Positions 12,971 to 60,816 of a stretch of 64,000 nucleotides of DNA are shown here, piece after piece. The notes under the pieces were generated by a model. It was not told where the DNA came from. It saw only the letters and a program-made list of their open reading frames with translations, and did not search any database. The position numbers and the translations under genes were made by a program. Each line of letters opens with the position of its first letter. The first letter of the stretch is position 1. Origin of the DNA: an uncultured Azospirillum sp. (GTDB lineage Bacteria; Pseudomonadota; Alphaproteobacteria; RF32; CAG-239); the NCBI GenBank assembly GCA_900538765.1, contig UQAB01000001.1, forward strand, positions 75,679 through 139,678, in the 5' to 3' direction.

Positions 12971-14152
12971 TTACTTTGTCAGCTCTACCGTATCCTGAGC
13001 AATAACCAATTCCTCGTTTGTCGGAATAACAAAGACCTTAACTTTGGAATCCGGTGTTGAAATTTCAATTTCTTCACCGCGCTTGTTGTTGGCTTCATCA
13101 ACCAGCTTGATGCCTAGATAAGACAGACGCTCACACAGCATTTTACGCAGCAGCGGTGAATTTTCGCCGATTCCCGCCGTGAAAATTATCGCATCCACAC
13201 CGCCCAGAACGGCAATATAAGAACCGATAAAACGGATAATCGTATGAACATAAACTTCCATCGCCGTTTTAGCTTTTTCATCACCGGCCAGATACTTCGC
13301 TTCAACGTCACGGTTATCGGAGAAACCGCTCAACCCCAACATACCGCTCTGCTTGTTCAGCAAGTCGTTGACCTCGTCAACCGTCTTGCGCTGATACTTC
13401 ATGATATGCAGCGGAATATAAGGATCAATATCGCCGCAGCGTGTCCCCATCATAATTCCGGCCAACGGCGTAAAGCCCATGGATGTATCGCGGCATTTGC
13501 CGTGGTCAACGGCAGAAATGGAAGCACCGTTGCCTAAATGGCAGGTAATAAACTTACCGTCGCATCCCAACAGTTCCGCCGCCCGGCGGGCAACATACTG
13601 ATGAGAAGTCCCGTGAGCGCCGTAACGGCGAATCTGATGCGCTTCATATTGTTCAATCGGCAGTGGATAAAGATAAGCTTCTTTAGGCATACTCTGATGA
13701 AAAGCAGTGTCAAAAGCGGCAACCTGTTTAATATTCGGCAAAGCGTTTTTAACCGCCTTAATTCCCAAAACCGCCGCCGGATTATGCAGCGGAGCCAAAA
13801 TCGACAGCTCATCAATTTTCTTCAAAACCTCATCCGTAATCAAAACCGACTTGTCAAAGAAACTGCCGCCCTGAACCACACGATGCCCAACACCGTCCAA
13901 CTCGTCAAGACTCTTCAGAGCACCGTTCAAAAGCAGATTAAGAACTTCCCTGATAGCTTCGTTGTGAGAAGGCAAAGCAACATCTTTAATAATTTTGTCG
14001 CCGTCACCGATTTTAATACTGACAAAAGAACCGTAAATACCGATACGTTCGGCATTGCCTTTTGCTATAACTTCATATTTATCGCCATCAACATTAAACA
14101 ACTGATATTTCAAAGAAGACGAACCTGAATTAAGTACTAATATTTTTTTCAT
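12971..14152 (-). CDS. ackA: acetate kinase
   Basis: MKKILVLNSGSSSLKYQLF and later AckA motifs. Start moved to the internal ATG (M48 of the ORF-track ORF). Confidence 0.9.
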   Translation of the reverse strand: MKKILVLNSGSSSLKYQLFNVDGDKYEVIAKGNAERIGIYGSFVSIKIGDGDKIIKDVALPSHNEAIREVLNLLLNGALKSLDELDGVGHRVVQGGSFFDKSVLITDEVLKKIDELSILAPLHNPAAVLGIKAVKNALPNIKQVAAFDTAFHQSMPKEAYLYPLPIEQYEAHQIRRYGAHGTSHQYVARRAAELLGCDGKFITCHLGNGASISAVDHGKCRDTSMGFTPLAGIMMGTRCGDIDPYIPLHIMKYQRKTVDEVNDLLNKQSGMLGLSGFSDNRDVEAKYLAGDEKAKTAMEVYVHTIIRFIGSYIAVLGGVDAIIFTAGIGENSPLLRKMLCERLSYLGIKLVDEANNKRGEEIEISTPDSKVKVFVIPTNEELVIAQDTVELTK

Positions 14153-14185
14153 ATAAACAATCCTAAAAAACAATTCAAATAGTAT

Positions 14186-14460
14186 ATTTTGCTCGCAATT
14201 TCTGCACTGGTACCCCAAAATACACATTTCCAAGAAATGGTGAAGTTTGAGTCGAGTAGTAGGCGTCAAGGGCAGAAAAAGCGCAGTGTACAATGGCTAA
14301 GTAAAACTGTAACCAACGTTACAGTTTTATCTGTAACATCTCAGAAAATCTTAGTGAGTTAAGCTGTGACAACTGCTGCAACGAACTTAGATTCCTGAGC
14401 TAGTACATGAGCATTTTTCTGTCCCGCTGACAACGCACTAATCGACCATTACACCCCCTA
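14186..14460. repeat. degenerate family-A repeat copies: a 3' half-element, then a copy whose core is split by a ~108-bp insert
   Basis: ...TTTGCTCGCAATTTCTGCACTGGTACCCCAAAATACAC is the 3' half. Then AATGGTGAAGTTTGAG...GCGCAGTGTACA, the insert with hairpin AAACTGTAACcaacGTTACAGTTT, and ...GCTAGTACATGAGCATTTTTCTG. Confidence 0.6.
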
Positions 14461-14583
14461 AAAAATGGTGGAGTTTGAGGCTAATAGTAAGAAACAAGAG
14501 AAAATGCGAGGGAGTGTACATAGAAGTACATGACCGAACATTTTGCTCGCAGTTTCTGTACTAGTAGCCCAAAATACACCATT
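14461..14583. repeat. family-A structured repeat, intact copy
   Basis: AAAAATGGTGGAGTTTGAGGCTAATAGTAAGAAAC...GGGAGTGTACATAGAAGTACATGACCGAACATTTTGCTCGCAGTTTCTGTACTAGTAGCCCAAAATACACC. Termini are imperfectly complementary and inner stem AAAATG/CATTTT flanks the core. Confidence 0.7.
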
Positions 14584-29480: not shown

Positions 29481-29612
29481 TTAGCCGCTGTAAAAGTTTG
29501 GAGTTTGAGACTAGTAGTAAGAAACTAGAGAAACCGCGACAGGAGTGTACACAATAGTACATGACTTAGCGGTTTACTCGCTGTTTCTGTACTAATAGCC
29601 CAAAATACGAAC
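29481..29612. repeat. family-A structured repeat, single copy
   Basis: CTTAGCCGCTGTAAAAGTTTGGAGTTTGAGACTAGTAGTAAGAAAC...AAACCGCgacaGGAGTGTACACAATAGTACATGACttaGCGGTTT...GTTTCTGTACTAATAGCCCAAAATACGA. Inner stem AAACCGC/GCGGTTT. Confidence 0.65.
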
Positions 29613-29617
29613 TTTTA

Positions 29618-33039: not shown

Positions 33040-33525
33040 TCAATAGTCTGCTTTAGGTTCTACGACAATTTCCTCCGGCGTACAGGAAATAACGGAAACA
33101 ACCGCTCCGTCGCCAGGGCTGTAGTTTTTGTCAGAATTAACCATTTCTGCCGTAAACACCTCATCGCTCAAAAAAGTGCTGAAATGCCCAAAAACTCGAC
33201 CGTTTTCAATCTTGTCAACAGCAAAGTCATAATAAGCGCTCTTCATCACGCCATAAAAGCGTTCTCTGACAGCCCAAACGGACAACGCGCTTAAAATAAT
33301 TGCCACCAAAACAAAAACACTCCAAAGCATACCGCTGTCATCCTGTCGCAAATATTCATAATTATAAACGACACACAGCACTAAGGCAAAAATCATAGAA
33401 ACAGCCCATAATGTCCAATGATAATGCTTTTTAAAACTCCAAAACGGATTAACACTCATAACAAACAAAAAATTGCTGACATTTTCCGCAATCAGAATTC
33501 CTAAAATAACTTTCCAAGTTTCCAT
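33040..33525 (-). CDS. small membrane-anchored protein (2 N-terminal TM helices plus beta-rich C-domain)
   Basis: Hydrophobic N-terminus and C-terminal ...KIENGRVFGHFSTFLSDEVFTAEMVNSD... Family-type promoter/leader upstream (TTGACATTTTTGATTTTGATGATATTTT...ATTAATTATTATG). Confidence 0.5.
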   Translation of the reverse strand: METWKVILGILIAENVSNFLFVMSVNPFWSFKKHYHWTLWAVSMIFALVLCVVYNYEYLRQDDSGMLWSVFVLVAIILSALSVWAVRERFYGVMKSAYYDFAVDKIENGRVFGHFSTFLSDEVFTAEMVNSDKNYSPGDGAVVSVISCTPEEIVVEPKADY

Positions 33526-33605: not shown

Positions 33606-33716
33606 TGCACATAGTTTCATATTCGTCAATTTTTCCTCTCTTCGTGAAAAATAATGGTTGAACATAAGAAAAATATATGTTAGATTAGATTTGTGATGAC
33701 AAGTGTGGAGGAAACT

Positions 33717-35597
33717 ATGAAAAGTATCTCAAAAGTAATGTTATTGTCAACTTCGTTCCTATTCCGCTTCGAAGCTGCTTACGCATTGGCCGATGCTGAT
33801 GCTTTTCCTGCTTTCCAAAGGGATGGTACCCACACACACTACACTACTAACCTCGCTCCTGTTCCACACTTGTCATCTGCACGCAATGAAATGGAATATA
33901 AGCTTGCTTCTGTTTGCTTCGTCACCGATACAACGGACTGCCGTGGCGGAAATTATGACATTCCGGATTACAACATCTGTGTTGAGGACGGTTATGACAA
34001 GACCTCCTGTCCCGATGAGTTTTACATTCCCGAAAACTACTGCCCTTATGACAGCAAATATTTTGCCAACTGCCGCGATGCCTGCGAGGGATATGTCGAA
34101 TGTGTCGACCCGTATTACGGTGTGGGTGAGGCTTGCCGTGGTTTATATGAAAAATGCGAATGCGACACCTGTCCCGGATATGTCTTTGAAAGCGATATTC
34201 CCCGCGGCTACCACAAAGTCGGGGAAGCCTGCAATTCCTGCGACGGGCCGAAATATAAGTACGAGATAAACACCTGCGACGGCTTTATGGAATGCACCGA
34301 CACCGGGCCGGAAGACGGCGCGGAAGTCTGCTGGCGCGGCGACACTCCGACATACAGCAGTTGCAAGCCCTGCGCCAATCTCGGCGATTTGGACAGTTGT
34401 CCGGCACATTATGTCTGCAAATATGAAGACTGCTCCAAGAAATATTACAAGACCGGCTGCGAAGACGGCTATATCTGGGACGAGGCGGCCAAGACCTGCA
34501 CACCGGAGTGTGATCCGAACGACCGCACCTGCCAATGTCCCGGAAAACATTTTTGCGACCCGGACACCAAAGTCGGCGACGGCAAAACCTGTACAACCGC
34601 CGACGGCACAACCTACTACGAAAGATGCCTCGTCAAGGAAACTTGTATAACCCATCATATGGCTAAAGATCCTGTATATCCGCAATGTCACATAAGAAAT
34701 TCTCTTGGTTTAAATAATTATTCATATTTTGTTGAAAAATACTGTACAACGCAGCAAAACCAAACTTATTACCGCTTTTGTTCTTGTACAGCTACTCAAA
34801 CGGATCCCTTGGGAAATATGCCGCCTTGCGCAGGCAAAAAACAATGCGATAACGATTCAGGATATGGTGAGCCCTGTATATGCGGCAACGGAAAATACTT
34901 TGATAAATGCGATGAATGTCAAATTCAAGGACAACGTTGGGAAAAAGACGAAAACGGCAATGGCGGCTGGTGTACAGACACAACAACAGATGTTCGTAAT
35001 CCGGACTATGATGGCGGAATGTTCTATGTTGACGAAAAATGCAAAATGTTAGATGGCACACCCATTTACGTAATCGGTTATTGCGGACAGTCCGGCTGCC
35101 GAGGTTATGCAAATTCTTGCAATGGTAAAATGCTTTGTGAAGATGATGAAGGTGCAGAAGGCGAAGTCGCCTGTGAATGCGGCGGAAGGAAATATTTCAA
35201 TAAATGTAAGGAAATGTGCCAATATAAAGTTAATAATACCGGAGTTAAATTCCATGAAACATCACACTGGTTTACAAAGGGCTGGTATATGGACAAAGTT
35301 GTTTGTACGCGTCTGGACGGCAGCAAAGTCGGTTATAGAAAACAATGCAATGCCACAACGACTGATGCCGCCGGCAACATGCCGCCATGTGCGGGAATGA
35401 AAGAATGTCCTAACGGAACATTCGGTACCGGAGAAAAATGTTCCTGCGGCGGGGTGTTATTTTACAGCGGTAACTGTATCACAGAATGCACTTACGAAGA
35501 CACCGCGGAAAGCTGTGCCGCCAAAGGACAAAGTTTTGAACAGAAATGTTATGGCACAAAAGACGAACAACAAACCTGGTTCGGACAGTGTAAATAG
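33717..35597 (+). CDS. secreted, extremely cysteine-rich repeat protein (EGF/furin-like spacing)
   Basis: GGAGG SD 6 nt before ATG MKSISKVMLLSTSFLFRFEAAYA (signal peptide). The ORF-track start at 33693 is GTG. About 80 Cys. Repeated module ...GNMPPCAG(K/M)K(Q/E)C.N..G.GE.C.CG.G.YF.KC.E.CQ. Confidence 0.6.
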   Translation: MKSISKVMLLSTSFLFRFEAAYALADADAFPAFQRDGTHTHYTTNLAPVPHLSSARNEMEYKLASVCFVTDTTDCRGGNYDIPDYNICVEDGYDKTSCPDEFYIPENYCPYDSKYFANCRDACEGYVECVDPYYGVGEACRGLYEKCECDTCPGYVFESDIPRGYHKVGEACNSCDGPKYKYEINTCDGFMECTDTGPEDGAEVCWRGDTPTYSSCKPCANLGDLDSCPAHYVCKYEDCSKKYYKTGCEDGYIWDEAAKTCTPECDPNDRTCQCPGKHFCDPDTKVGDGKTCTTADGTTYYERCLVKETCITHHMAKDPVYPQCHIRNSLGLNNYSYFVEKYCTTQQNQTYYRFCSCTATQTDPLGNMPPCAGKKQCDNDSGYGEPCICGNGKYFDKCDECQIQGQRWEKDENGNGGWCTDTTTDVRNPDYDGGMFYVDEKCKMLDGTPIYVIGYCGQSGCRGYANSCNGKMLCEDDEGAEGEVACECGGRKYFNKCKEMCQYKVNNTGVKFHETSHWFTKGWYMDKVVCTRLDGSKVGYRKQCNATTTDAAGNMPPCAGMKECPNGTFGTGEKCSCGGVLFYSGNCITECTYEDTAESCAAKGQSFEQKCYGTKDEQQTWFGQCK

Positions 35598-35696
35598 ATA
35601 TCCCCTTGTAAACTGGAGATGCTAATCGGCTACAAACCTTACAGTTTGACCACACTCGTTGGCGCGGAACAGTGTCTAATGACACCTTTGCATTCA

Positions 35697-35718
35697 GCCC
35701 CCGATAAATCGGGGGTTT
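35697..35718 (+). terminator. terminator after the Cys-rich gene
   Basis: CCCCCGATAAATCGGGGG followed by TTTTC. Confidence 0.5.
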
Positions 35719-35740
35719 TCTGTAAGGAGTGTAATAAGCA

Positions 35741-35769
35741 AAAAGGCTCTGAATTTTCAGAGCCCTTTT
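35741..35769. terminator. bidirectional terminator hairpin
   Basis: AAAAGGCTCTGAattttCAGAGCCCTTTT. Confidence 0.5.
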
Positions 35770-35772
35770 ATT

Positions 35773-36294
35773 TTAGTGAACTGTAACGGTAACAAACGGC
35801 AAGTCAACATTATCGCTCTTCACATCAACCCATAAACGCTCTCCGACTGAATAAGCGCACACAGCTCTGCCGATTACTTCACCTTCCAATTCCGCCGGTT
35901 GTTCTTTAGCTAAATCGACAAGCTCCGCATCGACAACAAGATGATAATCGTCAACACAGAGCTTACCAAACACCCGACCATCAATAACTCTGGTAATTTT
36001 AAAAGGAAAAAAACCACTGCTCATACATTCCACAAAGTAACGTTTCAGCATCAAAATGCCAAACATCGCCGGCAAACTGGAAACAATGGCAACAATGACA
36101 CACATTTCTTTTGACAAAACTTCCGTTCCATTGCAAAACGCCGCCGCTAAAACATTCAACAGCATCACACAACCCAAAAACAGAATAATCTTCATTCTGC
36201 CTTTGTAAGGACGCACCGGTTTTTTCCACAAAATCACACACATACTGCCCCAGCAAATGACGCTGCACAGCACAAAAATAATAAAAGATACCAT
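35773..36294 (-). CDS. small membrane-anchored protein (2 TM plus beta-rich C-domain)
   Basis: MVSFIIFVLCSVICWGSMCVILW... C-terminus ...ITRVIDGRVFGKL...EGEVIGRAVCAYSVGERLWVDV. Lies 11 nt downstream of the 36306..36806 gene, so likely an operon. Confidence 0.5.
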   Translation of the reverse strand: MVSFIIFVLCSVICWGSMCVILWKKPVRPYKGRMKIILFLGCVMLLNVLAAAFCNGTEVLSKEMCVIVAIVSSLPAMFGILMLKRYFVECMSSGFFPFKITRVIDGRVFGKLCVDDYHLVVDAELVDLAKEQPAELEGEVIGRAVCAYSVGERLWVDVKSDNVDLPFVTVTVH

Positions 36295-36305
36295 ACAAAA
36301 AATAT

Positions 36306-36806
36306 TTAAGGATTAATAATAACTCTTGGCTTCACCACACAAACCGTCAATTCCGGTTTCAGCATTTCAACCCTGACCTTATTGATCACCGCACCGACTT
36401 TCATCCGTTTGAGAAAATCCGGCCCGGCAAAACAGACTGCTTCAAAAGGCATATCCCGGTTAACACCGATTAAATTACCTTTGACATAACTGTTGCCGAA
36501 TTCCTGAACCTCAAACGAAAATTCCCTGCCCAGAATCTGTTCGGCAAAAGTTTTATGAACATACTTAATCGCCTGATAATCCCAAAACAAAGCAGTCCCG
36601 GTCAAAGTTCCAAACACAGCAAAATGTTCGGTAATATCCGGCCACGCAAAAACAAGCGTTGCAATCAACAATCCGGCCAGTTCGCCGACAAAAACACACC
36701 AGCCCTGACGCATCCTCTTATTCCACAACGGTTTAAGAAAGAAAATCAACGGCCAAGTTACAAAATTAAAAAAGAGCATCACGCTCACAATCCAATAACT
36801 TCCCAT
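36306..36806 (-). CDS. small membrane-anchored protein (2 TM plus beta-rich C-domain), paralogous architecture
   Basis: MGSYWIVSVMLFFNFVTWPLIFFL... Family-type promoter/leader upstream. Confidence 0.5.
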   Translation of the reverse strand: MGSYWIVSVMLFFNFVTWPLIFFLKPLWNKRMRQGWCVFVGELAGLLIATLVFAWPDITEHFAVFGTLTGTALFWDYQAIKYVHKTFAEQILGREFSFEVQEFGNSYVKGNLIGVNRDMPFEAVCFAGPDFLKRMKVGAVINKVRVEMLKPELTVCVVKPRVIINP

Positions 36807-36880
36807 AATTGTAATATTTAAAATTTATAATAATAAAGAAACATACTAGATGTACCGCAAATGGACAAAAGAGTCAACGA
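36807..36880 (-). promoter_or_regulatory. family-type promoter plus AU-rich leader
   Basis: Reverse complement reads TTGACTCTTTTGTCCATTTGCGGTACATC...TTTATTATTATAAATTTTAAATATTACAATTATG. Confidence 0.4.
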
Positions 36881-36910
36881 CAAAAGAGACCGGATGTTCC
36901 GGTCTCTTTT
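36881..36910. terminator. bidirectional terminator hairpin
   Basis: AAAAGAGACCGGatgttCCGGTCTCTTTT. Confidence 0.5.
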
Positions 36911-36916
36911 ATAAAA

Positions 36917-37237
36917 TCAAATAACAACACCTAATTGATAGATTTCATCAAATCCCAGCACCTCGGCGTCAACTTCAAGATGTTCCGCACCTTGCCCTTT
37001 TGACAAGTCCAGAAAATAGCCATGGCATAGACAGTCGTCTTTATAAAAATCCGCATGCCAGCCGCGTTCCTTGGTATAATAAGTCAGTACGGCAACAACA
37101 CGCTTCGGCTTTTCTTCCGGTTCCGTTTGAATTTGCAGCGGTTTAACATACTTTTTATACACATAGTCGCCAACATAAACAAGTACCAGAAAAACAACCA
37201 GAGTCACGGCAATAATAATAATTTCTTCTGTTTTCAT
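36917..37237 (-). CDS. small membrane-anchored protein (1 TM plus C-domain)
   Basis: MKTEEIIIIAVTLVVFLVLVYVG... Family-type promoter/leader upstream (TTGACATTTTGTCTATAAGGGGTATGAT...ATTAATTTCTAAATATACATAATTATG). Confidence 0.45.
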   Translation of the reverse strand: MKTEEIIIIAVTLVVFLVLVYVGDYVYKKYVKPLQIQTEPEEKPKRVVAVLTYYTKERGWHADFYKDDCLCHGYFLDLSKGQGAEHLEVDAEVLGFDEIYQLGVVI

Positions 37238-37320
37238 AATTATGTATATTTAGAAATTAATAATTAAAATATCTTTTATATCATACCCCTTATAGACAAA
37301 ATGTCAACAAAAAAGGGCGC
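37238..37320 (-). promoter_or_regulatory. family-type promoter plus AU-rich leader
   Basis: See the 36917..37237 entry. Confidence 0.4.
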
Positions 37321-37359
37321 TCTGAAAAAGCACCCCCGTTAAAGACAAAATATATCTTT

Positions 37360-39480
37360 TTATTTTTCGAGATCTTCACCGGTTTCCTGATTAACTCTCT
37401 TGGCAGAAAGTTTAATCTTACCGCGGTTATCCGTCCCCAGACATTTAACCCAAATCTCGTCGCCTTCCTTGTAAAAGTCAGAAACAGAAGCAATACGTTC
37501 GTTCTTAACCTCAGAAATATGAACCAATCCTTCCGTCTGTCCGAGGAAACGAACAAACGCACCAAAGTCCATAATCTTGGTAATCACGCCGTGATAAATC
37601 TTTCCTTCTTCCGGTTCGGCAACAATACCCATAATCCATTCCAAAGCGGCATCGCCGTCTTCCTTCTTCATGGATGCAATCTTGATAACGCCGTCATCGC
37701 TGATATCAATTTTGCAATGGGTCTTTTCGGTAATTTCACGAATAACCTTACCGCCGGAACCGATTACTTCGCGAATTTTATCAACCGGAATCTTAATCGC
37801 AACAATACGCGGCGCTTTGTCTGAAACATGTGGCCGCGGCTCGGCAATAACTTTCGCCATTTCGCCCAAAATATGAATACGGCCTTCATGAGCCTGAGCC
37901 AAAGCTGTCTGCATAATTTCTTTGGTAATGGAAGTAATCTTAATATCCATCTGCAAGGCGGTAACACCGTCTTTTGTTCCGGCAACCTTAAAATCCATAT
38001 CACCAAGATGGTCTTCATCACCGAGAATATCAGTCAAAACGGCAACCCGGCCATCATCTTCCTTAATCAACCCCATGGCAATACCGGCAACCGGCTTAGC
38101 CAAAGGAACACCGGCAGACATCAAAGACAATGTCGTTCCGCAAACGGTAGCCATCGAAGAAGAACCGTTTGATTCCAAAATCTCGGAAACAACACGAACC
38201 GTATAGGGAAAAGTATCCTTATTTTTCGGCATCATCGGATGAATAGCGCGCCATGCTAGCTTGCCGTGGCCGATTTCACGGCGTCCCGGAGCGCCGGTAC
38301 GACCGCACTCACCAACGGAAAACGGTGGAAAGTTATAATTCAGCATAAAGTCTTCTTTATATTCTTCCATCAGTCCGTCAATAATCTGCGCGTCTTCACC
38401 GGTACCCAAAGTTGTCGCAACCAGAGCCTGTGTTTCACCGCGCGTAAAGATAGCGGAACCGTGAGCCATTGGCAAAACGTCAACTTCACACCAAATCGGT
38501 CGAACAGTCTTTGTATCACGGCCGTCAATACGATGTCCCGTTGTCAAAACTTTTTCGCGAACAACCTTGTGCATTAATTTTTCCAACGCATCCTGCGCAT
38601 ATTTCTGCTCAAACTCATTTTCAGGATCAAGCGTCGCTTTAAATTCTTCGGAAGCTTTGCCAACCAGTTCACCGCGTTTCAGTTTGTCTGTTTCTTTGAA
38701 AGCTTCTTCAAACTTAGCTATAAAACCTTTCTCAAGTTTATTGTAAAGCTCGTCAAATTCCGGCGGAAACTTCGGCGCTTCCCACCGCGGTTTACCGGCT
38801 TCAGAAACCATTTCATTAATCATTTTGATAACCGGTTGGAAGCTCTCAAAACCAAACATAACCGCACCGAGCATTGTTTCTTCAGACAATTCCTGGGCTT
38901 CAGATTCTACCATCAGCACACCTTCTGATGTACCGGCAACAGCCAGTTCGAGTTCGGATTCTTTACGCTGATCCATTGTCGGATTCAAAATATACTGTCC
39001 GTCTTTATAACCAATCTTAGCCGCACCGATAGGCCCTAAGAACGGAATGCCGGAAACTGCCAGAGCAGCAGAAGCCGCAATCATGGCAACAACATCGGAA
39101 TCTGTCTGCTGGTCATGAGAAAGAACTGTACAAATAACTTGAACTTCATTTTTAAAAGCATCCGGGAACAGCGGACGAATTGGACGGTCAATCAGGCGAG
39201 AGATAAGAACTTCACGCTCGGAAGGCTTGCCTTCTCTTTTCATAAAACCGCCCGGCACTTTACCGGTAGCGTAATATTTTTCTTGATAATTAACTGTTAA
39301 AGGGAAGAAATCCTGATCGGGAGCAGCTTCCTTGGCTGCGCAAACTGTAGCTAAGACAGTGGTTCCTCCATAAGTTGCTTCCACGGCGCCGAGAGCCTGC
39401 TTAGCAATTTTACCTGTTTCTAAAACTAATTTTCTGCCGCCCCATTCCATTTCTTTGCGGCAAATATTCAATTCGACCAT
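37360..39480 (-). CDS. pnp: polynucleotide phosphorylase
   Basis: Two RNase PH domains plus KH and S1 domains. 706 aa. Sequence is diagnostic. Confidence 0.95.
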
Positions 39481-39649
39481 ATTTCTATACCTTTCATTTC
39501 ATCTTTTCAAACATCTTTATAAAACCTCACCCGAATTGGTCAAACCCGGGATTTTTAATATAAAGCACAATAATTACAATAATTGATATCGTGTAATAAA
39601 CTCCAAGTGCAAAAAAAACAGTATTCTCAAATTCTCCAGCACCTTCTTC

Positions 39650-40140
39650 AAAAAACTTGGAGTTTGAGGTCAATAGTAAGAAACTAGAGAAAATGTGAGG
39701 GAGTGTACATAGAAGTACATAACCGAACATTTTACTCGCAGTTTCTGTACTAGTGACCCAAAATACGAGTTTTTCAAAATTCACTTTTAGGAGAGCAGAT
39801 AGAGTAGTTTCCAGGTGCGAGAAAAATTCTAGTGTACAGAGAAGTACATGAATTTTTTGAGACACCCTCTCCTAAAAATGTTTTCAAAAAAACTTGGAGT
39901 TTGAGGTTAATAGTAAGAAAACAGAGAAAATGCGAGGGAGTGTACATAGAAGTACATGACCGAACATTTTACTCGCAGTTTCTGTACTAGTAACCCAAAA
40001 TACGAGTTTTTTAAAATTCACTTTTAGGAGAGCAGATAGAATAGTTTCCAGGTGCAAGAAAAATTCTAGTGTACAGAGAAGTACATGAATTTTTTGAGAC
40101 ACCGTAAAACTGCTCTAGATGCCTCATAAAAGTGAATTTT
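39650..40140. repeat. two tandem ~245-bp composite repeat units (family-A element plus a second hairpin element) filling the rpsO-pnp intergenic region
   Basis: Units at ~39652-39893 and ~39892-40140. Each has AAACTTGGAGTTTGAGGT(C/T)AATAGTAAGAAA...GGGAGTGTACATAGAAGTACAT(A/G)ACCGAA...CCCAAAATACGAGTTTTT. Then TTTTAGGAGAG...TAGTGTACAGAGAAGTACATGA...CTCTCCTAAAA. ORFs 39527..39865 and 39884..40102 are artefacts of the repeat. Confidence 0.7.
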
Positions 40141-40141
40141 T

Positions 40142-40414
40142 TTACTTACGGAGATCCAGCTTCTTAATAATTTCCTGATATCTGTCGTTGTTCTTGGCTT
40201 TCAAATAGTCAAGAAGATGGCGACGACGGCTGACCATTTTCATTAAGCCCAAACGGGAGTGCAAGTCTTTGTTATGAACATTGAAATGGCCGATAAGCTT
40301 ATTGATTCTGGCTGTCCAAATAGCAATCTGAACTTCCGGAGAACCTGTATCATTCGGATTCAAACCATAAGTATTTACAATTTCTTTTTTTTCTTCATTC
40401 GTAATAGACGACAT
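40142..40414 (-). CDS. rpsO: 30S ribosomal protein S15
   Basis: [31 protein letters not shown]... 90 aa. Confidence 0.9.
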
Positions 40415-40429
40415 CTGTATTTCCTTATT

Positions 40430-41341
40430 TTAGAGATTAAACACACGAACCGGAGCAATTTTCCGTTCTTCGATTCGCACAATCGCCGCCAGTTTACCGT
40501 TATATGTTGCCACAGCGTCTTCTCCAATGTGCTTAGAAACATCATAAGCGCGCGGAGACAGCCCCTGCCCCATTTTCAGTTTGGCGGCATCTGCTTCCGA
40601 AACAGCAATAACCGTGATGTCGCACAGAAATGTTTCTAACGGAAGCAAAAACTTATTAAGGTCTTCACCGTACACCATATTTTCTAAATTTTCCAGTAAA
40701 ATTTTCTGACTCAGATCAAAATTTCCGCATTTTGTCCGCCGCAGCTCCTGCAAATATCCTAAAGTTCCGAGTTTTAAAGCAATATCTTTGCCCAAAGTAC
40801 GGATATATGTCCCTTTGGAACAGCGGACTTTAAACCGCGCCTGCTGATTCGGCAACTCTTCAAGCAATTCCAGAGCATAGATTTCCACCTCGCGTTTGGG
40901 AATATCGACACAGATTCCCTTTCGTGCCAAATCATAAGCCCGCCGCCCGTTAATTTTAATCGCGGAATAAACCGGCGGCACCTGAACAATTTTCCCTAAA
41001 AAAGCCGGAATAACCGCTTCAATCTCCGAACGCTCGGGAATTTTCTCACATTGGGCAATCACCTCTCCCTCGGAATCATCCGTATCGGTAGAAACACCCC
41101 AACGAATAATAAATTCATACTCCTTGACGCCATCTGTCACAAAAGGCAAAAGCTTTGTCGCCTCGCCGAATGCAACCGGCAAAACCCCTGTTGCAAAAGG
41201 ATCCAGCGTCCCGGCATGGCCGTTTTTCCTGGCCCGGAACAAGCGTTTCGTCCGGCGCACCACATCTGTCGACCCCATTCCCCGGGATTTGTCAACCACC
41301 AGCCAACCGTTAATCTCTTCACCTTTGTTATGTTTCATCAA
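40430..41341 (-). CDS. truB: tRNA pseudouridine(55) synthase TruB
   Basis: GWLVVDKSRGMGSTDVVRRTKRLF...GHAGTLDPFATGVL is the catalytic Asp motif. PUA C-terminus. Confidence 0.9.
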   Translation of the reverse strand: MMKHNKGEEINGWLVVDKSRGMGSTDVVRRTKRLFRARKNGHAGTLDPFATGVLPVAFGEATKLLPFVTDGVKEYEFIIRWGVSTDTDDSEGEVIAQCEKIPERSEIEAVIPAFLGKIVQVPPVYSAIKINGRRAYDLARKGICVDIPKREVEIYALELLEELPNQQARFKVRCSKGTYIRTLGKDIALKLGTLGYLQELRRTKCGNFDLSQKILLENLENMVYGEDLNKFLLPLETFLCDITVIAVSEADAAKLKMGQGLSPRAYDVSKHIGEDAVATYNGKLAAIVRIEERKIAPVRVFNL

Positions 41342-41402
41342 CCTTCCCCGTTCATAATTTTACATCTTTTTAACCGATAAGCGCCCGTCTGTCAATGGAT
41401 AC

Positions 41403-41433
41403 AAAAAAACCTGAATCCGTTAAGGGATTCAGG
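41403..41433 (-). terminator. terminator of the 41440..42195 gene
   Basis: CCTGAATCCgttaagGGATTCAGG followed by T7, read on the minus strand. Confidence 0.5.
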
Positions 41434-41439
41434 CCATAA

Positions 41440-42195
41440 TTAATACAGCAACGACTTTGAATAATAAAAAACAAATCTTTCGCGCACAACAACCCAAAAG
41501 TCATAGCACAAATCCGCCACACTCCTGGGAGCGCAAAACCTGTCCGCCGCCAAACGGTTTCCAAAACAGCTGTTTCGTATTTTGAAAAAACGTTCCGAAC
41601 GCCGAACCAAACTGGGATAACGCAAATCCACCCGCATAAAAATACATTTATACATCAAATATCTGAGAACAAACACCTCCGTTTTGTTTTCGACCAGCAG
41701 CAAATCGCTTTTGATTGGAAACAGCAAAGAAGCGTCAAACATACCCTGTTCCCAAACATCATAGGCATTTTCTCCTGTCCTCTTGGCAATAATCTGTTTG
41801 GAATTTTTAGCATTGCAAAACACGCTTTCATAAATTACCTGACAAAAACACCCGCTCCCGTCAAAAAAAGACGTGATATTTGCACCATAAAAATAACAGC
41901 CAAAACTTTGCCCCAAACAAATAACTTTTCCTTGCTGCAGCGTATACCAAACATTCTCTTTCTCAAAGAATATCATTTCCCGATAAAAATAAGCATTGGC
42001 AACCTCATCTGCAACAAGCATCATCGCCGCCGCATTGACAATCAACAGCGTTTCGGCATCATCAGAAATCAATATCAACAACTCTCCCTGCCGCTCGGCA
42101 CGCCCGTTTTGACAATCAATGACAACATTGCCGTCTGATTTTTTTACAATTTGTAATCTCGCATTGCCGTTTTTAAAAACTTTTTTATTTCTCAT
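41440..42195 (-). CDS. hypothetical protein (~250 aa) with family-type AU-rich leader
   Basis: Start chosen at MRNKKVFKNGN... by analogy to the leader pattern TTTAATTATTATTGTTATATTTTTATG. The ORF-track start at 42234 lies inside the AT-rich leader. No domain recognised. Confidence 0.4.
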   Translation of the reverse strand: MRNKKVFKNGNARLQIVKKSDGNVVIDCQNGRAERQGELLILISDDAETLLIVNAAAMMLVADEVANAYFYREMIFFEKENVWYTLQQGKVICLGQSFGCYFYGANITSFFDGSGCFCQVIYESVFCNAKNSKQIIAKRTGENAYDVWEQGMFDASLLFPIKSDLLLVENKTEVFVLRYLMYKCIFMRVDLRYPSLVRRSERFFKIRNSCFGNRLAADRFCAPRSVADLCYDFWVVVRERFVFYYSKSLLY

Positions 42196-51819: not shown

Positions 51820-52255
51820 AGCCGTAGTAAAAAGTTCAGAGTTTGCGGCAGATAATAAGAATCTCGGAAAAAGACGAAGGGAGTGTACATAGAAGTACAT
51901 GACCGAGTATTTTTTCAATGTTCTGTATTAGATGCCCAAAATACGCAGCAACAAACCCAAACCCCGACCTTAGCCGCTGTAAAAAGGTCGGAGTTTGCGG
52001 CAGATAATAAGAATCTCGGAAAAAGACGAAGGAAGTGTACACAGAAGTACATGACCGAGTATTTTTCCGAGATTCTGTATTAGGTACCCAAAATACGCAG
52101 CAACAAACCCAAGCCCCGACCTTAGCCGCTGTAAAAAGGTCGGAGTTTGCGGCAGATAATAAGAATCTCGGAAAAAGACGAAGGGAGTGTACACAGAAGT
52201 ACATGACCGAGTATTTTTCCGAGATTCTGTATTAGGTGCCCAAAATACGAGCTTT
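51820..52255. repeat. three tandem ~152-bp family-A-variant repeat units between infB stop and the 51085 gene promoter
   Basis: Each unit is ...CCGACCTTAGCCGCTGTAAAAAGGTCGGAGTTTGCGGCAGATAATAAGAATCTCGGAAAAAgacgaaGGGAGTGTACACAGAAGTACATGACCGAGTATTTTTCCGAGATTCTGTATTAGGT(A/G)CCCAAAATACG... ORFs 51836..52204, 51883..52083, 51970..52287, 52035..52235 and 52187..52393 are repeat artefacts. Confidence 0.7.
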
Positions 52256-54757
52256 TTACAATGTTGCGGCGATTTCCTCCACCTCATAACACTCTATAAA
52301 GTCACCGACTTGAATATCGTTATAGTTTTCAAAACTCATACCGCATTCATAGCCGGATTTGACCTCTTTAACATCTTCCTTAAAGCGTTTTAGCTGAGCC
52401 AAAGCGCCATCATGAATAACAACATTGTCACGCAGCAGACGAACCTTGGCACCACGCTTGACAAAGCCTTCCGTCACCATGCAGCCGCCGACTTTACCGA
52501 CACCGGTAATATTGAAGACATTGCGGATTTCGGCATAACCGATAATCTTTTCTCTCAATTCAGGCGACAACATACCTTCCAAAGCCTTCTTAATGTCATC
52601 GGCCACATCATAAATAATCGAGTAATAACGAATATCCACGCCGTCCTGACGCGCCATGTCACGGGCATGCGGAATAGCACGGACGTTAAAGCCGATGATA
52701 AAGGCATTGGAAGCCTTAGCCAGAGTAACATCGGAATCCGAAATAGGACCAACGGCAGAATGCAAAATCTGAACGCTGACTTCCTCGTTGGACAACTTCT
52801 TAATTGTACCTTCAATAGCCTCAATAGAACCTTGAACATCAGCCTTGATAATAACCGGCAAATGCTTAACTTCGCCTGACTTAATCTTATCAAGCATCTG
52901 TTCCATTGCAGACTTGGCACTCTTAACCAGTTTAGCGTCACGTTCTTTGCGAATACGATAACCGGTAACTTCCTTAGCCTGGTTTTCGTCCTTAACAATG
53001 ACAAAATCGTCACCGGCTGCCGGCGTTCCTTGCAAACCGAGAATTTCAACTGGGGTCGCCGGACCGGCTTCCGTCATCTTCTTGCCATGTTCGTTAAACA
53101 TAGCGCGGACATGTCCCCACTCCTTACCGGCAATACAAATATCACCAACGCGCAGCGTACCGTTCTGAACCAGAACCGTTGCAACAGAACCGCGGCCTTT
53201 TTCCATCTTGGCTTCAACAACCGTACCCGAAGCCATGCGATTCGGGTTGGCTTTCAAATCCAGAATTTCCGCCTGCAACAGAATAGCTTCAACCAGCTTA
53301 TCAATGTTAATACGCTTCTTAGCCGAAACTTCTGCGCTCAAATATTCACCGCCCATATCTTCAACGGCAATGCCATGTTGCAATAAAGCGGTCTTCACCT
53401 TCATCGGATCAGCGCCCGGAAGGTCAATCTTGTTAATCGCAACCACAATCGGCACTTCTGCAGCCTGAGCATGGCGGATTGCCTCAACCGTCTGCGGCAT
53501 AATGCCGTCATTGGCAGCAACCACCAGAACCACAATATCGGTAACCTTTGCACCGCGAGCACGCATTTCTGAAAAGGCCTCGTGTCCCGGCGTATCAATA
53601 AAGGCAATCTTTTTGCCTCCGGCAACTTCAATCTGATAAGCACCGATATGTTGCGTAATACCACCAGCCTCGCGAGAAGCAACGTTTGTTTCGCGCAAAG
53701 CATCCAATAACGAAGTCTTACCATGGTCAACGTGTCCCATAACCGTAACCACCGGCGCTCTCGGCAGCAAATCGGCGTCCGTATCTTCCGGACCGGTCAA
53801 CCCCTGCTCAACATCGCTGTCGGCAACTCGTTTAAACTTATGTCCGAATTCCTCAACCACAATCTGCGCCGTATCGGCATCAATCGGTTGGTTAATCGTA
53901 GCCATAACCCCTAAAGCCATCAGCTTTTTAATAACTTCGGCACCTTTTTCTGCCATACGGTTAGCCAATTCCTGAACCGTAATAATTTCAGGAATAACGA
54001 CCTCTTTAACAATTTTTTCTGTCGGCTGCTGAAAAGCCTGCTGCTTCGGCTGTTTTTTCTTAAACCGACGCCGGCCGCCGCCAAAACCATAATCATCGTC
54101 ATCTTCATCAACACTGCTCAATGTATGCAGGTTGACTTTTCCGCCGCGCCGCGGTGTTTCAAAACTGCGCTTCATAACTTTTTTGCGCTCTTGTTCAAAA
54201 ACATCATCTTTGCTCAAAGATCTTTCGGCAACTTTTTTAAACTTATGATTATGGGAATCTTCTTCCTCGTCTTCGTCCTCTTCATCGAAATCGCGGGACT
54301 TCTTTTCCTTAATCTTCTGAATACGATCATCCTCAGCCGGTGAAACCGCTGCCGTTACCACAGGACGAACAGCTGCTTTTTTCTCCTCCGCCGCCTTTTT
54401 AGCTTCTTCGGCTTCCCGTTGAGCCTTTTCCTGCTCTTCCTGTTCACGTCTCAGCTGGCGCTGGCGTTCCTTCTCTTCTTCCTCCTGCCGGCGTTTGGCA
54501 TCATGCTCTTTAGCCTCGGCAATAAGCCGCAGCTTTGCAGCTGTCGCTTCGTCAATTTTAACTTTAGGCTCTTCCGTTTCGCTGCGATTGGCGATAACCC
54601 TCTTCTTTCGCACTTCAACCTGAACAATCTTCTTGCCGTCATTATTGTGCGCCCGGGAACCGTCGCTTACATTTTTGAGTGTAAGGGTAGATTTACCTGA
54701 TAATGTTAATTTGCTTTTTGCATTATCTTCTGTCATTAATTTTTTTCTCCGTATCAT
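52256..54757 (-). CDS. infB: translation initiation factor IF-2
   Basis: GTPase domain [19 protein letters not shown]...DTPGHEAF...NKID and the IF-2 C-terminal domains. An alternative start is the ATG at 54736. Confidence 0.95.
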
Positions 54758-57816: not shown

Positions 57817-59592
57817 TCATATTTTTTTTTTATATTTCAAAACAAAATCATTAACAAGGTCATAAATCTTCTGCTTGTAACATTTTTGATTGTATAAAGT
57901 TTCTATATCAATATCTTTATTCCCAACATATATTTTTATTCGTGAACCCAGCTTGACATCAATATCTTCGTCTAAAGCTAGAAAGTCTAAATTAAAAATT
58001 TCAGCATATTGTTTTTTAATCTTTTCTTTAAGCCTCAAATAATCTTCATTTACTAACAAATATTTTAGCATAAATTCATTTCCAAAAAAATCCTTGTATT
58101 TTGAATAATCATTACTAGCAATACTAGCGCACTTATCATTTGTTATATCACAAGGATACAAACTTAAATCAATCTTTTCGCTTTTATTTATAACAAACCA
58201 ACATGTCAATCCTCCATCAGAAGGGCGTTCTTTAAAATATTCTTCACTCAAGGTTCTGTAATATGCATAATAATCTCTTAGGCATTCACCGTTTTCTACA
58301 TATTCAATTTTCTTTGATAGAGGAGCTTGAGAATTAGTACTTCCATCTTTTACCAAAGAAATTGTTGCTGGTTGAACATCCTTATAAATAATAAACGTTT
58401 TATTACGATCTAAATAATTTTTCTTATTTTCAATGACGATATTCTTGTCTTTCTTCAACGTTCTATATTCTCTTAATTTGTCTCCAGCAAAATCCTTCTC
58501 ATCAAAATAGTAAAGCTTATCTCGTACTTTAATTGAGGCATGGGGAGGTAAACCAACAAACTCTTCTTTATCTGAATTTTGTCGATAAAAAAAGAACTCG
58601 GCATTGTAATTAAACAATTCATATTTTTTGTTTTGAAATGATAAACTTGCTATCGTATACGGAGAATTATTGGTAATTATATACTCAACTTCAAAATCAT
58701 TGTAATTAGAGATAACACGAGAAAACTTAACCTCAACCTGAGACTTCAACTCCTCAATTTTATCACTGAAAGGTTTCGCTATTAGCTTTCCATCAGTCAT
58801 AAAATTAAATGTCTGCTCTATAAGATTATTTATTTTCTTTTGTTTTTCTGAACTACAAATATTCCCATCAATTTCCGTTGCAATTTCATCAGTTTTATAA
58901 GCCATTGCTGCTTGATAATCTTTACTTAATTTTCTTAAATCATCTAAAAAATCCATTCCCAAATTTTTGTCATTAGTAAGAATATCTTTATCAGATGGGG
59001 AAATATTAAAAATTTCTTCTGTATACTCTTCTTCATTTTCTAAAATCTCAAGATAAGAAGAAATAATTTTTTTTACTTTCTTTCTGTTGTTTAACTCTTT
59101 TAACTTTTGTTCCTCCCTTTTCTGTTTCATATCCTTATTATACGTTTTACATGAACGATAATTACTAATTTCATTCATTCTCGACAAACTTAATTCTGTT
59201 TTTAATACATTTATATCCTTTTGCAGAGGGTTATCGTCATAAACATTTGCCAAAAACAAGCTATAATGTTCTATTACGGTTTCCATGTCGCCTAAAACAA
59301 TATCTTTAATATTATCACATACGTTTGACACTTCCATATTAGCAATCTCTGTTTTTATCTCTACTAAGCTAGATATTCTATTTGAAAGTACAATCCGTGA
59401 TGTTACAGAAGCAATTTTCTCATACTCAGAAAATAATTTTATTTTCTTGTTTATAAATTCTTTTTCCCCTGCTGGCTCGTAAAAATATTTATAATAAGAA
59501 TAACAAATACTTCCACAAATTATTATTGTTAACAAGGCTATTAAAGATAGTAAAATTATTTTCTTTAATTTCAACATTTTCTTTTCTTCCAT
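57817..59592 (-). CDS. AT-rich-island hypothetical lysine-rich single-pass membrane protein (~592 aa)
   Basis: Start at MEEKKMLKLKKIILLSLIALLTIIICG with SD GGGGTGA 3-4 nt upstream. N-terminal TM then a large K/N/E/Y-rich domain. Very low GC compared with neighbours. Confidence 0.55.
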   Translation of the reverse strand: MEEKKMLKLKKIILLSLIALLTIIICGSICYSYYKYFYEPAGEKEFINKKIKLFSEYEKIASVTSRIVLSNRISSLVEIKTEIANMEVSNVCDNIKDIVLGDMETVIEHYSLFLANVYDDNPLQKDINVLKTELSLSRMNEISNYRSCKTYNKDMKQKREEQKLKELNNRKKVKKIISSYLEILENEEEYTEEIFNISPSDKDILTNDKNLGMDFLDDLRKLSKDYQAAMAYKTDEIATEIDGNICSSEKQKKINNLIEQTFNFMTDGKLIAKPFSDKIEELKSQVEVKFSRVISNYNDFEVEYIITNNSPYTIASLSFQNKKYELFNYNAEFFFYRQNSDKEEFVGLPPHASIKVRDKLYYFDEKDFAGDKLREYRTLKKDKNIVIENKKNYLDRNKTFIIYKDVQPATISLVKDGSTNSQAPLSKKIEYVENGECLRDYYAYYRTLSEEYFKERPSDGGLTCWFVINKSEKIDLSLYPCDITNDKCASIASNDYSKYKDFFGNEFMLKYLLVNEDYLRLKEKIKKQYAEIFNLDFLALDEDIDVKLGSRIKIYVGNKDIDIETLYNQKCYKQKIYDLVNDFVLKYKKKI

Positions 59593-59706
59593 AATCACCC
59601 CGCTTATTCGAAAAACCATTAATCGAAAAATACTTCCAATAAAAAGACACAAACAACAAAAAAATGAAAAACTAAATCTATATTAATCATCCATTATACA
59701 CAACAT

Positions 59707-60816
59707 TTAACCGTCTTCAAGATGAAGCAATATCGACACGCTCACCAATACCGTAATCAAAATAGGCGTCCAAACCGCCATAAATACCGGAATATAGCCG
59801 TTCAAACCGAAAGTATAAATAACCTGCGATGAAAAATAAACCAGAAAACCGGCAATAATACCGCCGACAATAAGAAACATCACGCCACCGCGGCGATTGT
59901 TCGGCCGCAGAGCAAAAACCGCCGCTACCAAAACCATGGCACAAAGCATAAATGGCGAAGCAATCAGCGACAAATAACGAATTCGATGTTTAACCACCGA
60001 AAAGCCGGATTTTTTATAAAATTCTATTGTGCTGGGCAAATCCCAAAAAGAAATGGCGTCAGGATCAATAAAATTCTCCCGGATACGATCGACCGTAATC
60101 GTTGTGTTGTACTTAACGCTGTTGACAATAGTCCGCGGCTTACCGGCCTCAAATACATTAACATCTTTCAACTCAATCTGTTCATTTTTCAAAACCGCCA
60201 TAAAAGCACCAACCTGCCGCAAAATCTGGGAATTATGGTCAAGTTCCAAAATATTGACATCATACAAATACAAAGTCTGCTCATCTTCCTGACGGACGGA
60301 TTTGGCCTGCATTACCAAAACATTGCCTTCTTCCGCCGCTTCCCTGATCCATAATCCTTTATCGGAAAAAAGCACGGCCTTCGGATTTTTGGTCTTAAGC
60401 TGATAATCCATCGTTTCAAAAATTTCCAACATCCTTGAGGCAATCGGATTAAAAATACTCACATTAATCACGCCAATCATAAAAACGGCAAACAGAACCG
60501 GAACCAGAAAGCCCCAAACAGACACCCCTGCTGCCCGGATAATCACAAATTCGTTTGTTTTGCTGACTTTTTGAAAAGTCACCATCGCGGCAATCATCAT
60601 GACAAACGGGAAAATCATATCCAGTGTCCGCGGCAATTTCATCATTACCATCTTCAGAACAAAACCCCAGCCGATATCCGGCCTGTCCGCCACACGGCGC
60701 AGCAAATCAATCACCTCAAACATAAATATAATGCCCAGCACCATAATCAGAACTGAGAAAAAATTCCACACAATCTGCTTTGTCAGATATCTGCCGAGAA
60801 TAGAATTAGGTTTCAT
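59707..60816 (-). CDS. LptF/LptG-family LPS export permease (YjgP/YjgQ)
   Basis: Six-TM topology with a large periplasmic loop and a conserved N-terminal ILGRYL...F region. 369 aa. Confidence 0.75.
   Translation of the reverse strand: MKPNSILGRYLTKQIVWNFFSVLIMVLGIIFMFEVIDLLRRVADRPDIGWGFVLKMVMMKLPRTLDMIFPFVMMIAAMVTFQKVSKTNEFVIIRAAGVSVWGFLVPVLFAVFMIGVINVSIFNPIASRMLEIFETMDYQLKTKNPKAVLFSDKGLWIREAAEEGNVLVMQAKSVRQEDEQTLYLYDVNILELDHNSQILRQVGAFMAVLKNEQIELKDVNVFEAGKPRTIVNSVKYNTTITVDRIRENFIDPDAISFWDLPSTIEFYKKSGFSVVKHRIRYLSLIASPFMLCAMVLVAAVFALRPNNRRGGVMFLIVGGIIAGFLVYFSSQVIYTFGLNGYIPVFMAVWTPILITVLVSVSILLHLEDG

Follow-up and report, generated by a model that had tools for sequence, protein, structure and literature searches.

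Polymorphic toxins such as CdiA-CT and Rhs carry a conserved N-terminal body and an exchangeable C-terminal region that meet at a short invariant motif, VENN in CdiA and PxxxxDPxGL in Rhs. Among bacterial variable antigens, Anaplasma Msp2, Neisseria PilE/pilS, Borrelia VlsE and Treponema TprK have conserved flanks that anchor segmental gene conversion from several donor copies per genome (PMC4534519). In the gut lumen, Giardia carries the large VSP/CRP170 multigene families (PMC2188815), whose members contain about 10 to 12% cysteine arranged as a regular scaffold; the stretches between the cysteines vary, and a terminal segment is conserved. A gene that resembles each of these in part lies in an uncultured Azospirillum sp. 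(GTDB lineage Bacteria; Pseudomonadota; Alphaproteobacteria; RF32; CAG-239), on contig UQAB01000001.1 of assembly GCA_900538765.1. The stretch analyzed, called the window below, comprises 64,000 nucleotides (positions 75,679 to 139,678 of the forward strand, numbered here from 1), and the gene, at window positions 33717 to 35597, encodes a cysteine-rich protein of 626 amino acids.

Judged from sequence searches, this gene is a member of an undescribed, lineage-restricted family found only in uncultured human-gut Alphaproteobacteria. The protein family is new, and its theme, that of variable secreted or surface multigene families, is known. We assign a probability of about 55% to the reading that its members are Sec-exported, all-disulfide modular proteins that form a binding or surface repertoire shuffled by recombination.

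Modular architecture of the cysteine-rich protein

The open reading frame (ORF) was confirmed in translation as 626 codons plus stop. The protein is ordered as a signal peptide, a disordered spacer, the motif ASVCF(I/V)TDT, a conserved N-terminal half (N-half), the peptide CLVKETC, an array of two to four modules (three here) and a 36-amino-acid cap; the array and cap make up the C-terminal half (C-half). Features of the gene were supported by profile hidden Markov models (HMMs), by third-codon-position GC content (GC3) and by AlphaFold2 (AF2) models scored as predicted local distance difference (pLDDT) and predicted template modeling score (pTM):

33717-35597, plus strand: coding sequence, 626 amino acids, 62 cysteines (9.9%)
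33717-33785, plus strand: predicted Sec signal peptide, amino acids 1 to 23, cleavage after AYA, by inspection of the translation
33786-33905, plus strand: disordered spacer, amino acids 24 to 63, with a conserved G-T/I-H-T-H/Y-Y/H-T motif and AF2 pLDDT below 50
33906-34646, plus strand: conserved N-half, amino acids 64 to 310, beginning at ASVCF(I/V)TDT, with about four distinct cysteine-rich submodules and GC3 of 0.63
34626-34646, plus strand: invariant junction CLVKETC, amino acids 304 to 310, nearly invariant in the alignment, at the recombination breakpoint and GC3 change-point
34713-34925, plus strand: variable-array module 1, amino acids 333 to 403, from the module alignment (HMM E-value 2.8e-24)
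35010-35225, plus strand: variable-array module 2, amino acids 432 to 503, from the module alignment (HMM E-value 2.8e-21)
35274-35495, plus strand: variable-array module 3, amino acids 520 to 593 (HMM E-value 1.8e-25; AF2 module model pLDDT 88, pTM 0.63)
35487-35594, plus strand: conserved C-terminal cap, amino acids 591 to 626, C-x-Y-E-D-T-x-E-x-C...F-x-x-K-C...W-x-G-x-C-K, the 3' recombination anchor

A preliminary description of this DNA had put the cysteine content at about 80 residues (about 13%), a figure replaced by the count above, and had seen a module recur two or three times. A module profile built from three candidate copies and iterated on the family bore out the recurrence, finding exactly three 72-amino-acid cysteine-rich copies with domain E-values of 1e-21 to 1e-25 and linkers of 17 to 30 amino acids; relatives hold two to four. 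The module has 8 to 10 cysteines and the consensus xxGxYxVKxxCTTxxG-x8-C-x5-DCxGNxxPCxGKKxC-x5-G-x4-CxCGGxxYFxxCxxxC, in which the 10 columns conserved at 90% or more are 8 cysteines and 2 glycines. Columns E594, T596, C600, F607, C611, G623 and C625 of the cap are invariant, with pLDDT of 79 to 90. The mature region has an even number of cysteines in 38 of 46 full-length members, and this parity, together with the invariant cysteine columns, indirectly supports a state in which all cysteines would be in disulfides.

An AF2 model built on a 35-row alignment reached a mean pLDDT of 70.8, with residues 1 to 113 disordered (pLDDT below 50) and the remainder at about 66 to 90. This remainder consists of small beta-hairpin units, and from residue 121 the N-half has pLDDT of about 66 to 84. 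A single-module model from 50 module sequences gave the pLDDT and pTM listed above.

The N terminus, read by eye, runs from MKSISK through VMLLSTSFLFRF to EAAYA|L and includes the hydrophobic stretch VMLLSTSFLF. By inspection it has the n-h-c and AxA pattern of a signal peptide, and the form MKxSKVxLLSTxxLF is kept across the family. In short-leader relatives the start motif comes directly behind a canonical signal peptide. The earlier proposal that the protein is exported is therefore plausible on a Sec signal that is predicted only. The possibility that the conserved "SVC" marks a lipoprotein was rejected, as these residues lie 60 to 130 amino acids from the N terminus in this subfamily with no canonical lipobox visible by inspection.

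Exchange of C-terminal cassettes at fixed anchors

The same locus was found in L005, from another strain of the same species, with pth, L25 and a 161-amino-acid ORF on one side of the gene and 173-, 166- and 106-amino-acid ORFs and PNPase on the other. Compared in 60-nucleotide windows, identity between the two strains changes abruptly along the gene:

up to 33860: 98 to 100%
33861-34178: 60 to 78%
34179-34650: 82 to 93%
34659-35450: unalignable
35451-35568 (C-terminal cap): 68 to 83%
35569-35748: insertion-deletion
from 35749: 92 to 98%

DNA homology to L005, L010, L012, L013 and L014 stops at 34645-34646, and similarity to other alleles resumes at about 35451-35475. In L015, from metagenome-assembled genome (MAG) JAUNPO01, the downstream flank is 98% identical to window positions 35727 to 41860, yet the gene has a different C-half, encoding P0011. 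The C-halves of L005 and L015 thus bring the number of deeply different alleles at this locus in one species to at least three (the window allele, P0007 and P0011).

Cassettes are exchanged at these fixed anchors, and modules are gained and lost in register. For example, alleles at least 90% identical may differ by exactly one 93-amino-acid module plus linker (739 versus 646 amino acids). Comparison of protein sequences indicates that N-halves and C-halves assort independently: P0006 and P0007 are 99% identical in the N-half and 32% in the C-half, P0004 and P0005 are 99% and 45% identical, and the C-half encoded in the window has its nearest counterpart in P0004 (58%), the N-halves of these two proteins being only 77% identical. 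The spacer, which differs in length by about 40 to 110 amino acids among family members, is mosaic in patches, since the window shares its spacer with P0006 and P0007, and P0001 shares its spacer with P0003.

Estimates by the Nei-Gojobori method gave nonsynonymous-to-synonymous rate ratios (dN/dS) of 0.04 to 0.12 in the N-half and about 0.13 for C-half pairs, where synonymous divergence (dS) is saturated, within an overall range of 0.04 to 0.14. The scaffold is under purifying selection. Between the window and L005, dS is 0.70 in the N-half and 0.05 to 0.16 in the flanking genes, a difference that argues for old allelic or paralogous diversity moved by recombination, not for fast local mutation.

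A diversity-generating retroelement was considered as a source of the variation and rejected, because the variation is whole-cassette replacement, not point substitution, and the window has no second copy of the gene. No reverse transcriptase was found among Pfam-annotated genes within 10 kb on either side, and a search of the 64-kb window for a second copy or silent cassette of any part of the gene found none.

A composition step at the recombination boundary

The N-half has a GC content of 0.53 and the C-half one of 0.42, and their respective GC3 values are 0.63 (amino acids 67 to 310) and 0.36 (amino acids 311 to 590). A cumulative-sum (CUSUM) analysis placed the change-point after codon 307 (nucleotide 34637), within the nearly invariant CLVKETC peptide, with a statistic reached by 0 of 20,000 codon permutations. 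A three-segment fit gave GC3 values of 0.47, 0.70 and 0.37, with breaks at nucleotides 34203 and 34635, and the segment of highest GC3, 34203-34635, is also the one most alike between copies. In 100-codon windows the GC3 swing is 0.41 (0.71 to 0.30), the largest among the 35 long ORFs of the window, followed by 0.32 and 0.20. The abrupt mid-gene shift that had been noted by eye is therefore real and significant. The preliminary description had also allowed for a shift without significance and for widespread ordinary homologs; the homologs proved rare and unannotated.

The high and low GC3 values of the two halves recur in genomes of 44 to 47% GC at L005 (0.66 and 0.40), L010 (0.65 and 0.33), L013 (0.63 and 0.31) and L007 (0.58 and 0.30), and the step is weak in the 37%-GC lineage of L011 and L012. 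Because it recurs in family genes at other loci, the step belongs to the family as a whole and was not left behind by one recent fusion. The step marks a true recombination boundary, and the chimeric origin proposed earlier, as one foreign joining event, is not supported. We infer, as a conjecture, that GC-biased gene conversion may have acted on the homogenized part and AT-biased divergence on the part that is not homogenized.

Two other composition features were seen in the window. The second-largest intragenic GC3 swing (0.32) belongs to a 440-amino-acid ORF at 12971-14293 on the minus strand, and the 2-kb stretch 58001-60000 has 30% GC, versus a window mean of 44.6%.

A dispersed multigene family confined to one lineage

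Clustering at 90% gave 34 relatives of the protein and clustering at 50% gave 526, all without annotation. A profile search of 1.84 billion cluster representatives found 526 proteins at an E-value of 1e-3 or lower and 141 at 1e-30 or lower, and in the matches inspected the same and additional cysteine-rich module types are put together in different combinations. Every relative with a name is a "hypothetical protein" entry from a MAG of Alphaproteobacteria or Pseudomonadota, CAG:495 and UMGS1426 among them. None of the relatives seen was eukaryotic, which leaves the suggestion of eukaryote-like domains unsupported and that of host-receptor mimicry without evidence. Literature searches returned no description of the family and nothing relevant on CAG-495 or RF32 biology.

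Among close relatives, only P0001 and P0007 sit at the locus of the window. P0006 lies between two CitMHS transporter genes, a Mur ligase gene precedes P0004, a flavoprotein gene and malQ flank P0003, and P0005, P0015 and P0018 are at further separate loci; no neighboring gene was found again from one of these loci to another. At L010 (4460-9587), the transporters around the family gene are tandem 449-amino-acid CitMHS-type paralogs, as though the gene had been inserted in or beside a duplication. Upstream of P0015, L007 (1-7835) encodes two very large proteins without a Pfam match (more than 1,139 and 1,487 amino acids), followed on the same strand by a T2SSE-family ATPase and a 176-amino-acid ORF.

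Ten contigs with family genes, representing at least 10 distinct loci, were found in a single MAG of the same species (JAUNPO, from a species-representative genome collection; flank 98% identical). Most of the 10 end inside the conserved region just 5' of CLVKETC, and each runs into a different C-half and different flanking genes, the contigs being alike in the gene part only (67 to 85% identity). Short-read assemblies break at the conserved half of the family genes, and MAGs therefore capture too little of the diversity of the family.

Expression signals

The Shine-Dalgarno sequence and signal peptide proposed in the preliminary description are accompanied by a candidate promoter and, downstream, by hairpins:

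33658-33686, plus strand: putative sigma-70-like promoter, TTGAAC, 17-nucleotide spacer, TAGATT, with TG upstream, read from the sequence
33707-33711, plus strand: Shine-Dalgarno sequence GGAGG, 5 nucleotides 5' of the ATG, kept as GGAGG or AGGAGG in paralogs
35697-35721, plus strand: intrinsic-terminator-like hairpin, GCCCCCG, ATAAAT loop, CGGGGGT, then TTTCT, read directly and not in the scanner list
35745-35764: second hairpin, bidirectional, listed by the scanner

Upstream GTG and ATG codons at 33693 and 33696 would give 634 and 633 amino acids; the start at 33717 is favored because relatives such as P0003 and P0006 begin with MKSIS. In an alignment of eight paralog and ortholog upstream regions from different loci, the TTG and parts of the -10 element of the candidate promoter are invariant, and a match at only 8 of 12 positions accounts for its absence from the consensus scanner list. 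The gene, on the strand opposite to nearly all of its neighbors, looks monocistronic, given the GC-rich hairpin with its T-run and the second hairpin behind it.

Paralogs at other loci have in common about 95 nucleotides upstream of the ATG, containing the candidate promoter and Shine-Dalgarno sequence, as well as the signal peptide. For example, window positions 33628 to 33875 are 97% identical to L010, a different locus, and the conserved upstream block, Shine-Dalgarno sequence, ATG and signal peptide are present at L010, L013, L014, L011, L012 and L007. This comparison covered full-length copies, setting aside the 10 JAUNPO contigs with missing 5' ends. Given these common elements, the full-length copies, each with its own candidate promoter, appear to be separate expression units, as opposed to silent cassettes.

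Searches against known families and folds

No Pfam-A or NCBIfam family matched the 626-amino-acid protein at an E-value of 10 or lower, including the Myxococcus-type cysteine-rich repeat TIGR02232 and other cysteine-rich repeats of NCBIfam. A Pfam search of all 35 aligned members gave just three isolated sub-threshold matches, and a search of the PDB by sequence a single chance match (E-value 0.62). Foldseek found no significant fold match for the module model; TNFR-family chains (E-values 2.5 to 8, TM-score at most 0.27) and cysteine-rich parasite proteins appeared solely in its noise. On the long relatives, Pfam and NCBIfam returned nothing useful beyond 30 bits for P0153 on RANK_CRD_2, a score that reaches the threshold of that family and is carried by 17-residue stretches of a module type absent from the 626-amino-acid protein. 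With no match in Pfam, NCBIfam, PDB or fold searches, membership in the EGF, furin-like, TNFR or VSP families is not supported, and the EGF- or furin-like cysteine spacings described earlier found no counterpart in any profile or fold search.

Four relatives, P0019, P0023, P0131 and P0153, have other cysteine-rich repeats (YKYxCTG...CDGKYxxCxC...GYxW) in place of the 72-amino-acid array and end in a cysteine-poor domain with WxLP...YWSS motifs. We take this domain to resemble DUF1566/Lcl_C (PF07603), which Pfam reported only below threshold, at an E-value of 0.02 in one of the 35 relatives, and which is absent from the 626-amino-acid protein.

Other features of the locus and window

Four small minus-strand ORFs surround the cysteine-rich gene between L25 and PNPase, at 33040-33525, 35773-36294, 36306-36806 and 36917-37237. 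They encode 161, 173, 166 and 106 amino acids, have one to three predicted transmembrane segments each and no Pfam match, and the 161- and 173-amino-acid proteins are weak paralogs of each other (28% identity, E-value 5e-6). Examined as possible partner or immunity genes, they were kept between strains and not found at other family loci. The insertion-deletion at 35569-35748 is a 3' untranslated stretch with one terminator hairpin, which makes the window about 130 to 180 bases longer than L005.

An intergenic repeat of about 120 nucleotides with internal inverted symmetry is dispersed in the window (39650-40103, 14461-14577, 29492-29616 and 51829-52262) and occurs in related contigs. Between pnp and rpsO it makes up a 237-nucleotide unit present 1.9 times, near 52 kb it stands as three copies in tandem, and at the other sites it is single. 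The repeat may be an element like a repetitive extragenic palindrome (REP) or a miniature inverted-repeat transposable element (MITE), and has no Rfam match. An Rfam scan of the whole window likewise returned no match, and no riboswitch or leader RNA was recognized upstream of the cysteine-rich gene.

Interpretation and alternative explanations

The favored reading is a shuffled repertoire of exported modular proteins. Homologous recombination creates the diversity, with the 5' untranslated region and signal peptide, the junction and the cap as anchors. Entire C-half arrays move among dispersed paralogs as well as among strains, single modules come and go in register, and short spacer patches are converted. 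The alleles are old lineages reshuffled instead of products of rapid mutation. The GC3 step is the border between a recombination-homogenized N-half and a deeply diverged, AT-richer C-half. A scaffold of cysteines and glycines would hold variable loops, the density of disulfides would give stability in the protease-rich gut, and the proteins would act outside the cytoplasm as a binding or surface repertoire, adhesin-like or antigenically diverse. The data suggest, and do not prove, a variable surface or binding protein.

Several points weigh against this interpretation. Export beyond the inner membrane is our inference from sequence features; the gene has no linked anchor, autotransporter barrel or dedicated secretion gene, the neighbors differ at each family locus, and in a diderm cell the protein could stay periplasmic. 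Apart from the one weak Lcl_C match in one relative, the searches found no adhesin or lectin domain of a known kind, and there is no gene-wide signal of positive selection at a dN/dS of about 0.13 with saturated synonymous sites in the C-half. In addition, the AF2 models were built on shallow alignments, the signal peptide was judged by eye, expression of the gene is predicted from sequence, and the choice between biased gene conversion and AT-biased drift behind the GC3 step is conjectural.

That the protein is instead a housekeeping component of the periplasm or envelope, either buffering metals or redox state or serving a structural role like the chlamydial cysteine-rich envelope proteins, with its variability due to relaxed constraint, is unlikely. 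The visible Sec signal with no identified outer-membrane route and the low overall dN/dS are compatible with such a role, but the strict cysteine scaffold and even cysteine parity point to disulfides and not to unpaired thiols or metal-binding sites. A buffering protein would not be expected to have 10 or more diverged paralogs per genome, three deeply different alleles at one locus within a species and in-register module changes, and purifying selection on the N-half shows that the gene is not in decay. A toxin of the polymorphic kind or a bacteriocin, in which the conserved N-terminal part would serve delivery or receptor binding and the variable part beyond the conserved motif would be the effector, could explain a conserved half joined to an exchangeable half at an invariant motif in a secreted protein with many copies per genome. 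However, what varies is an array built from a single scaffold module and closed by a conserved cap, not a choice of unrelated toxin domains, no toxin family matched in Pfam or NCBIfam, and no immunity gene co-varies downstream. The small ORFs beside the gene run convergently, are missing from other family loci and are 92 to 98% conserved between strains with different C-halves, which makes this explanation quite improbable.

A recent chimera, with a horizontally acquired, AT-rich, eukaryote-like 3' half of EGF, furin or TNFR type fused to a native GC-rich 5' half in the service of host-receptor mimicry, has a very slim chance of being correct and is largely refuted. The sharp GC3 step and the homology break do fall at the same place, and the TNFR-family chains in the nonsignificant Foldseek matches and the RANK_CRD_2 score of P0153 also speak in its favor, that score being reached through a module type not present here. 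Against it, the same order of high and low GC3 at other loci and in other genomes makes the join ancestral to the family, and both halves are confined to this bacterial lineage. The chance that the gene is an artefact, with two paralogs wrongly joined at the conserved junction during metagenomic assembly, is negligible. Assemblers do struggle at this site, as the contigs of one MAG that break exactly at the conserved region attest, but the identical N-half and C-half occur at the identical locus in four other independent assemblies (L001 to L004, from ENA and Logan) at 98 to 99% DNA identity, and an assembly chimera is excluded on that basis. The window allele is also common, its 90% cluster holding 85 sequences, one of them on 33 contigs.

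Uncultured gut Alphaproteobacteria resembling CAG:495 are common in human metagenomes, yet their interactions with the surroundings are almost uncharted. With at least 10 dispersed members, this family of exported proteins, if all-disulfide as predicted, would be a strong contender for the place where these bacteria meet host, phage or other microbes, and the 72-amino-acid module may offer structural work or engineering a new small disulfide scaffold.

Relation to known variable protein systems

The modules resemble EGF-like, furin-like and TNFR domains in being small, disulfide-stabilized, mostly beta-hairpin units predicted to be extracellular and arranged in tandem. In contrast to CdiA-CT and Rhs, the present protein has a C-half made of one repeated scaffold module and a conserved cap, with no toxin domain and no cognate immunity gene. 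The bacterial variable antigens named at the outset use one expression site fed by promoterless silent cassettes, whereas the full-length copies of this family carry their own upstream block, Shine-Dalgarno sequence and signal peptide. Of the hallmarks of cassette-type antigenic variation, segmental replacement between conserved anchors was therefore found here and promoterless donors were not (paralogs at L010, L013, L014, L011, L012 and L007). Alleles of the present family are also stable enough to recur in many samples, and there is no sequence or fold relationship to those antigens.

Giardia VSPs differ in being eukaryotic, in their CXXC motifs, in their C-terminal transmembrane helix and CRGKA tail, and in having the variable part at the N terminus; here the N-half is conserved, the C-half is variable and there is no transmembrane anchor. 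Pfam VSP gave no match at an E-value of 10 or lower, and the C terminus, ...TWFGQCK, has no hydrophobic segment. The disulfides of VSPs have a presumed role in protease resistance. By analogy, it is conceivable, though doubtful, that the family forms a bacterial counterpart of the VSP coat, made of at least 10 protease-resistant, disulfide-knotted surface proteins with previously unseen folds. If so, cassette exchange, possibly combined with selective expression of copies, would vary the cell surface against immunoglobulin A, phages and changing host or protist ligands.

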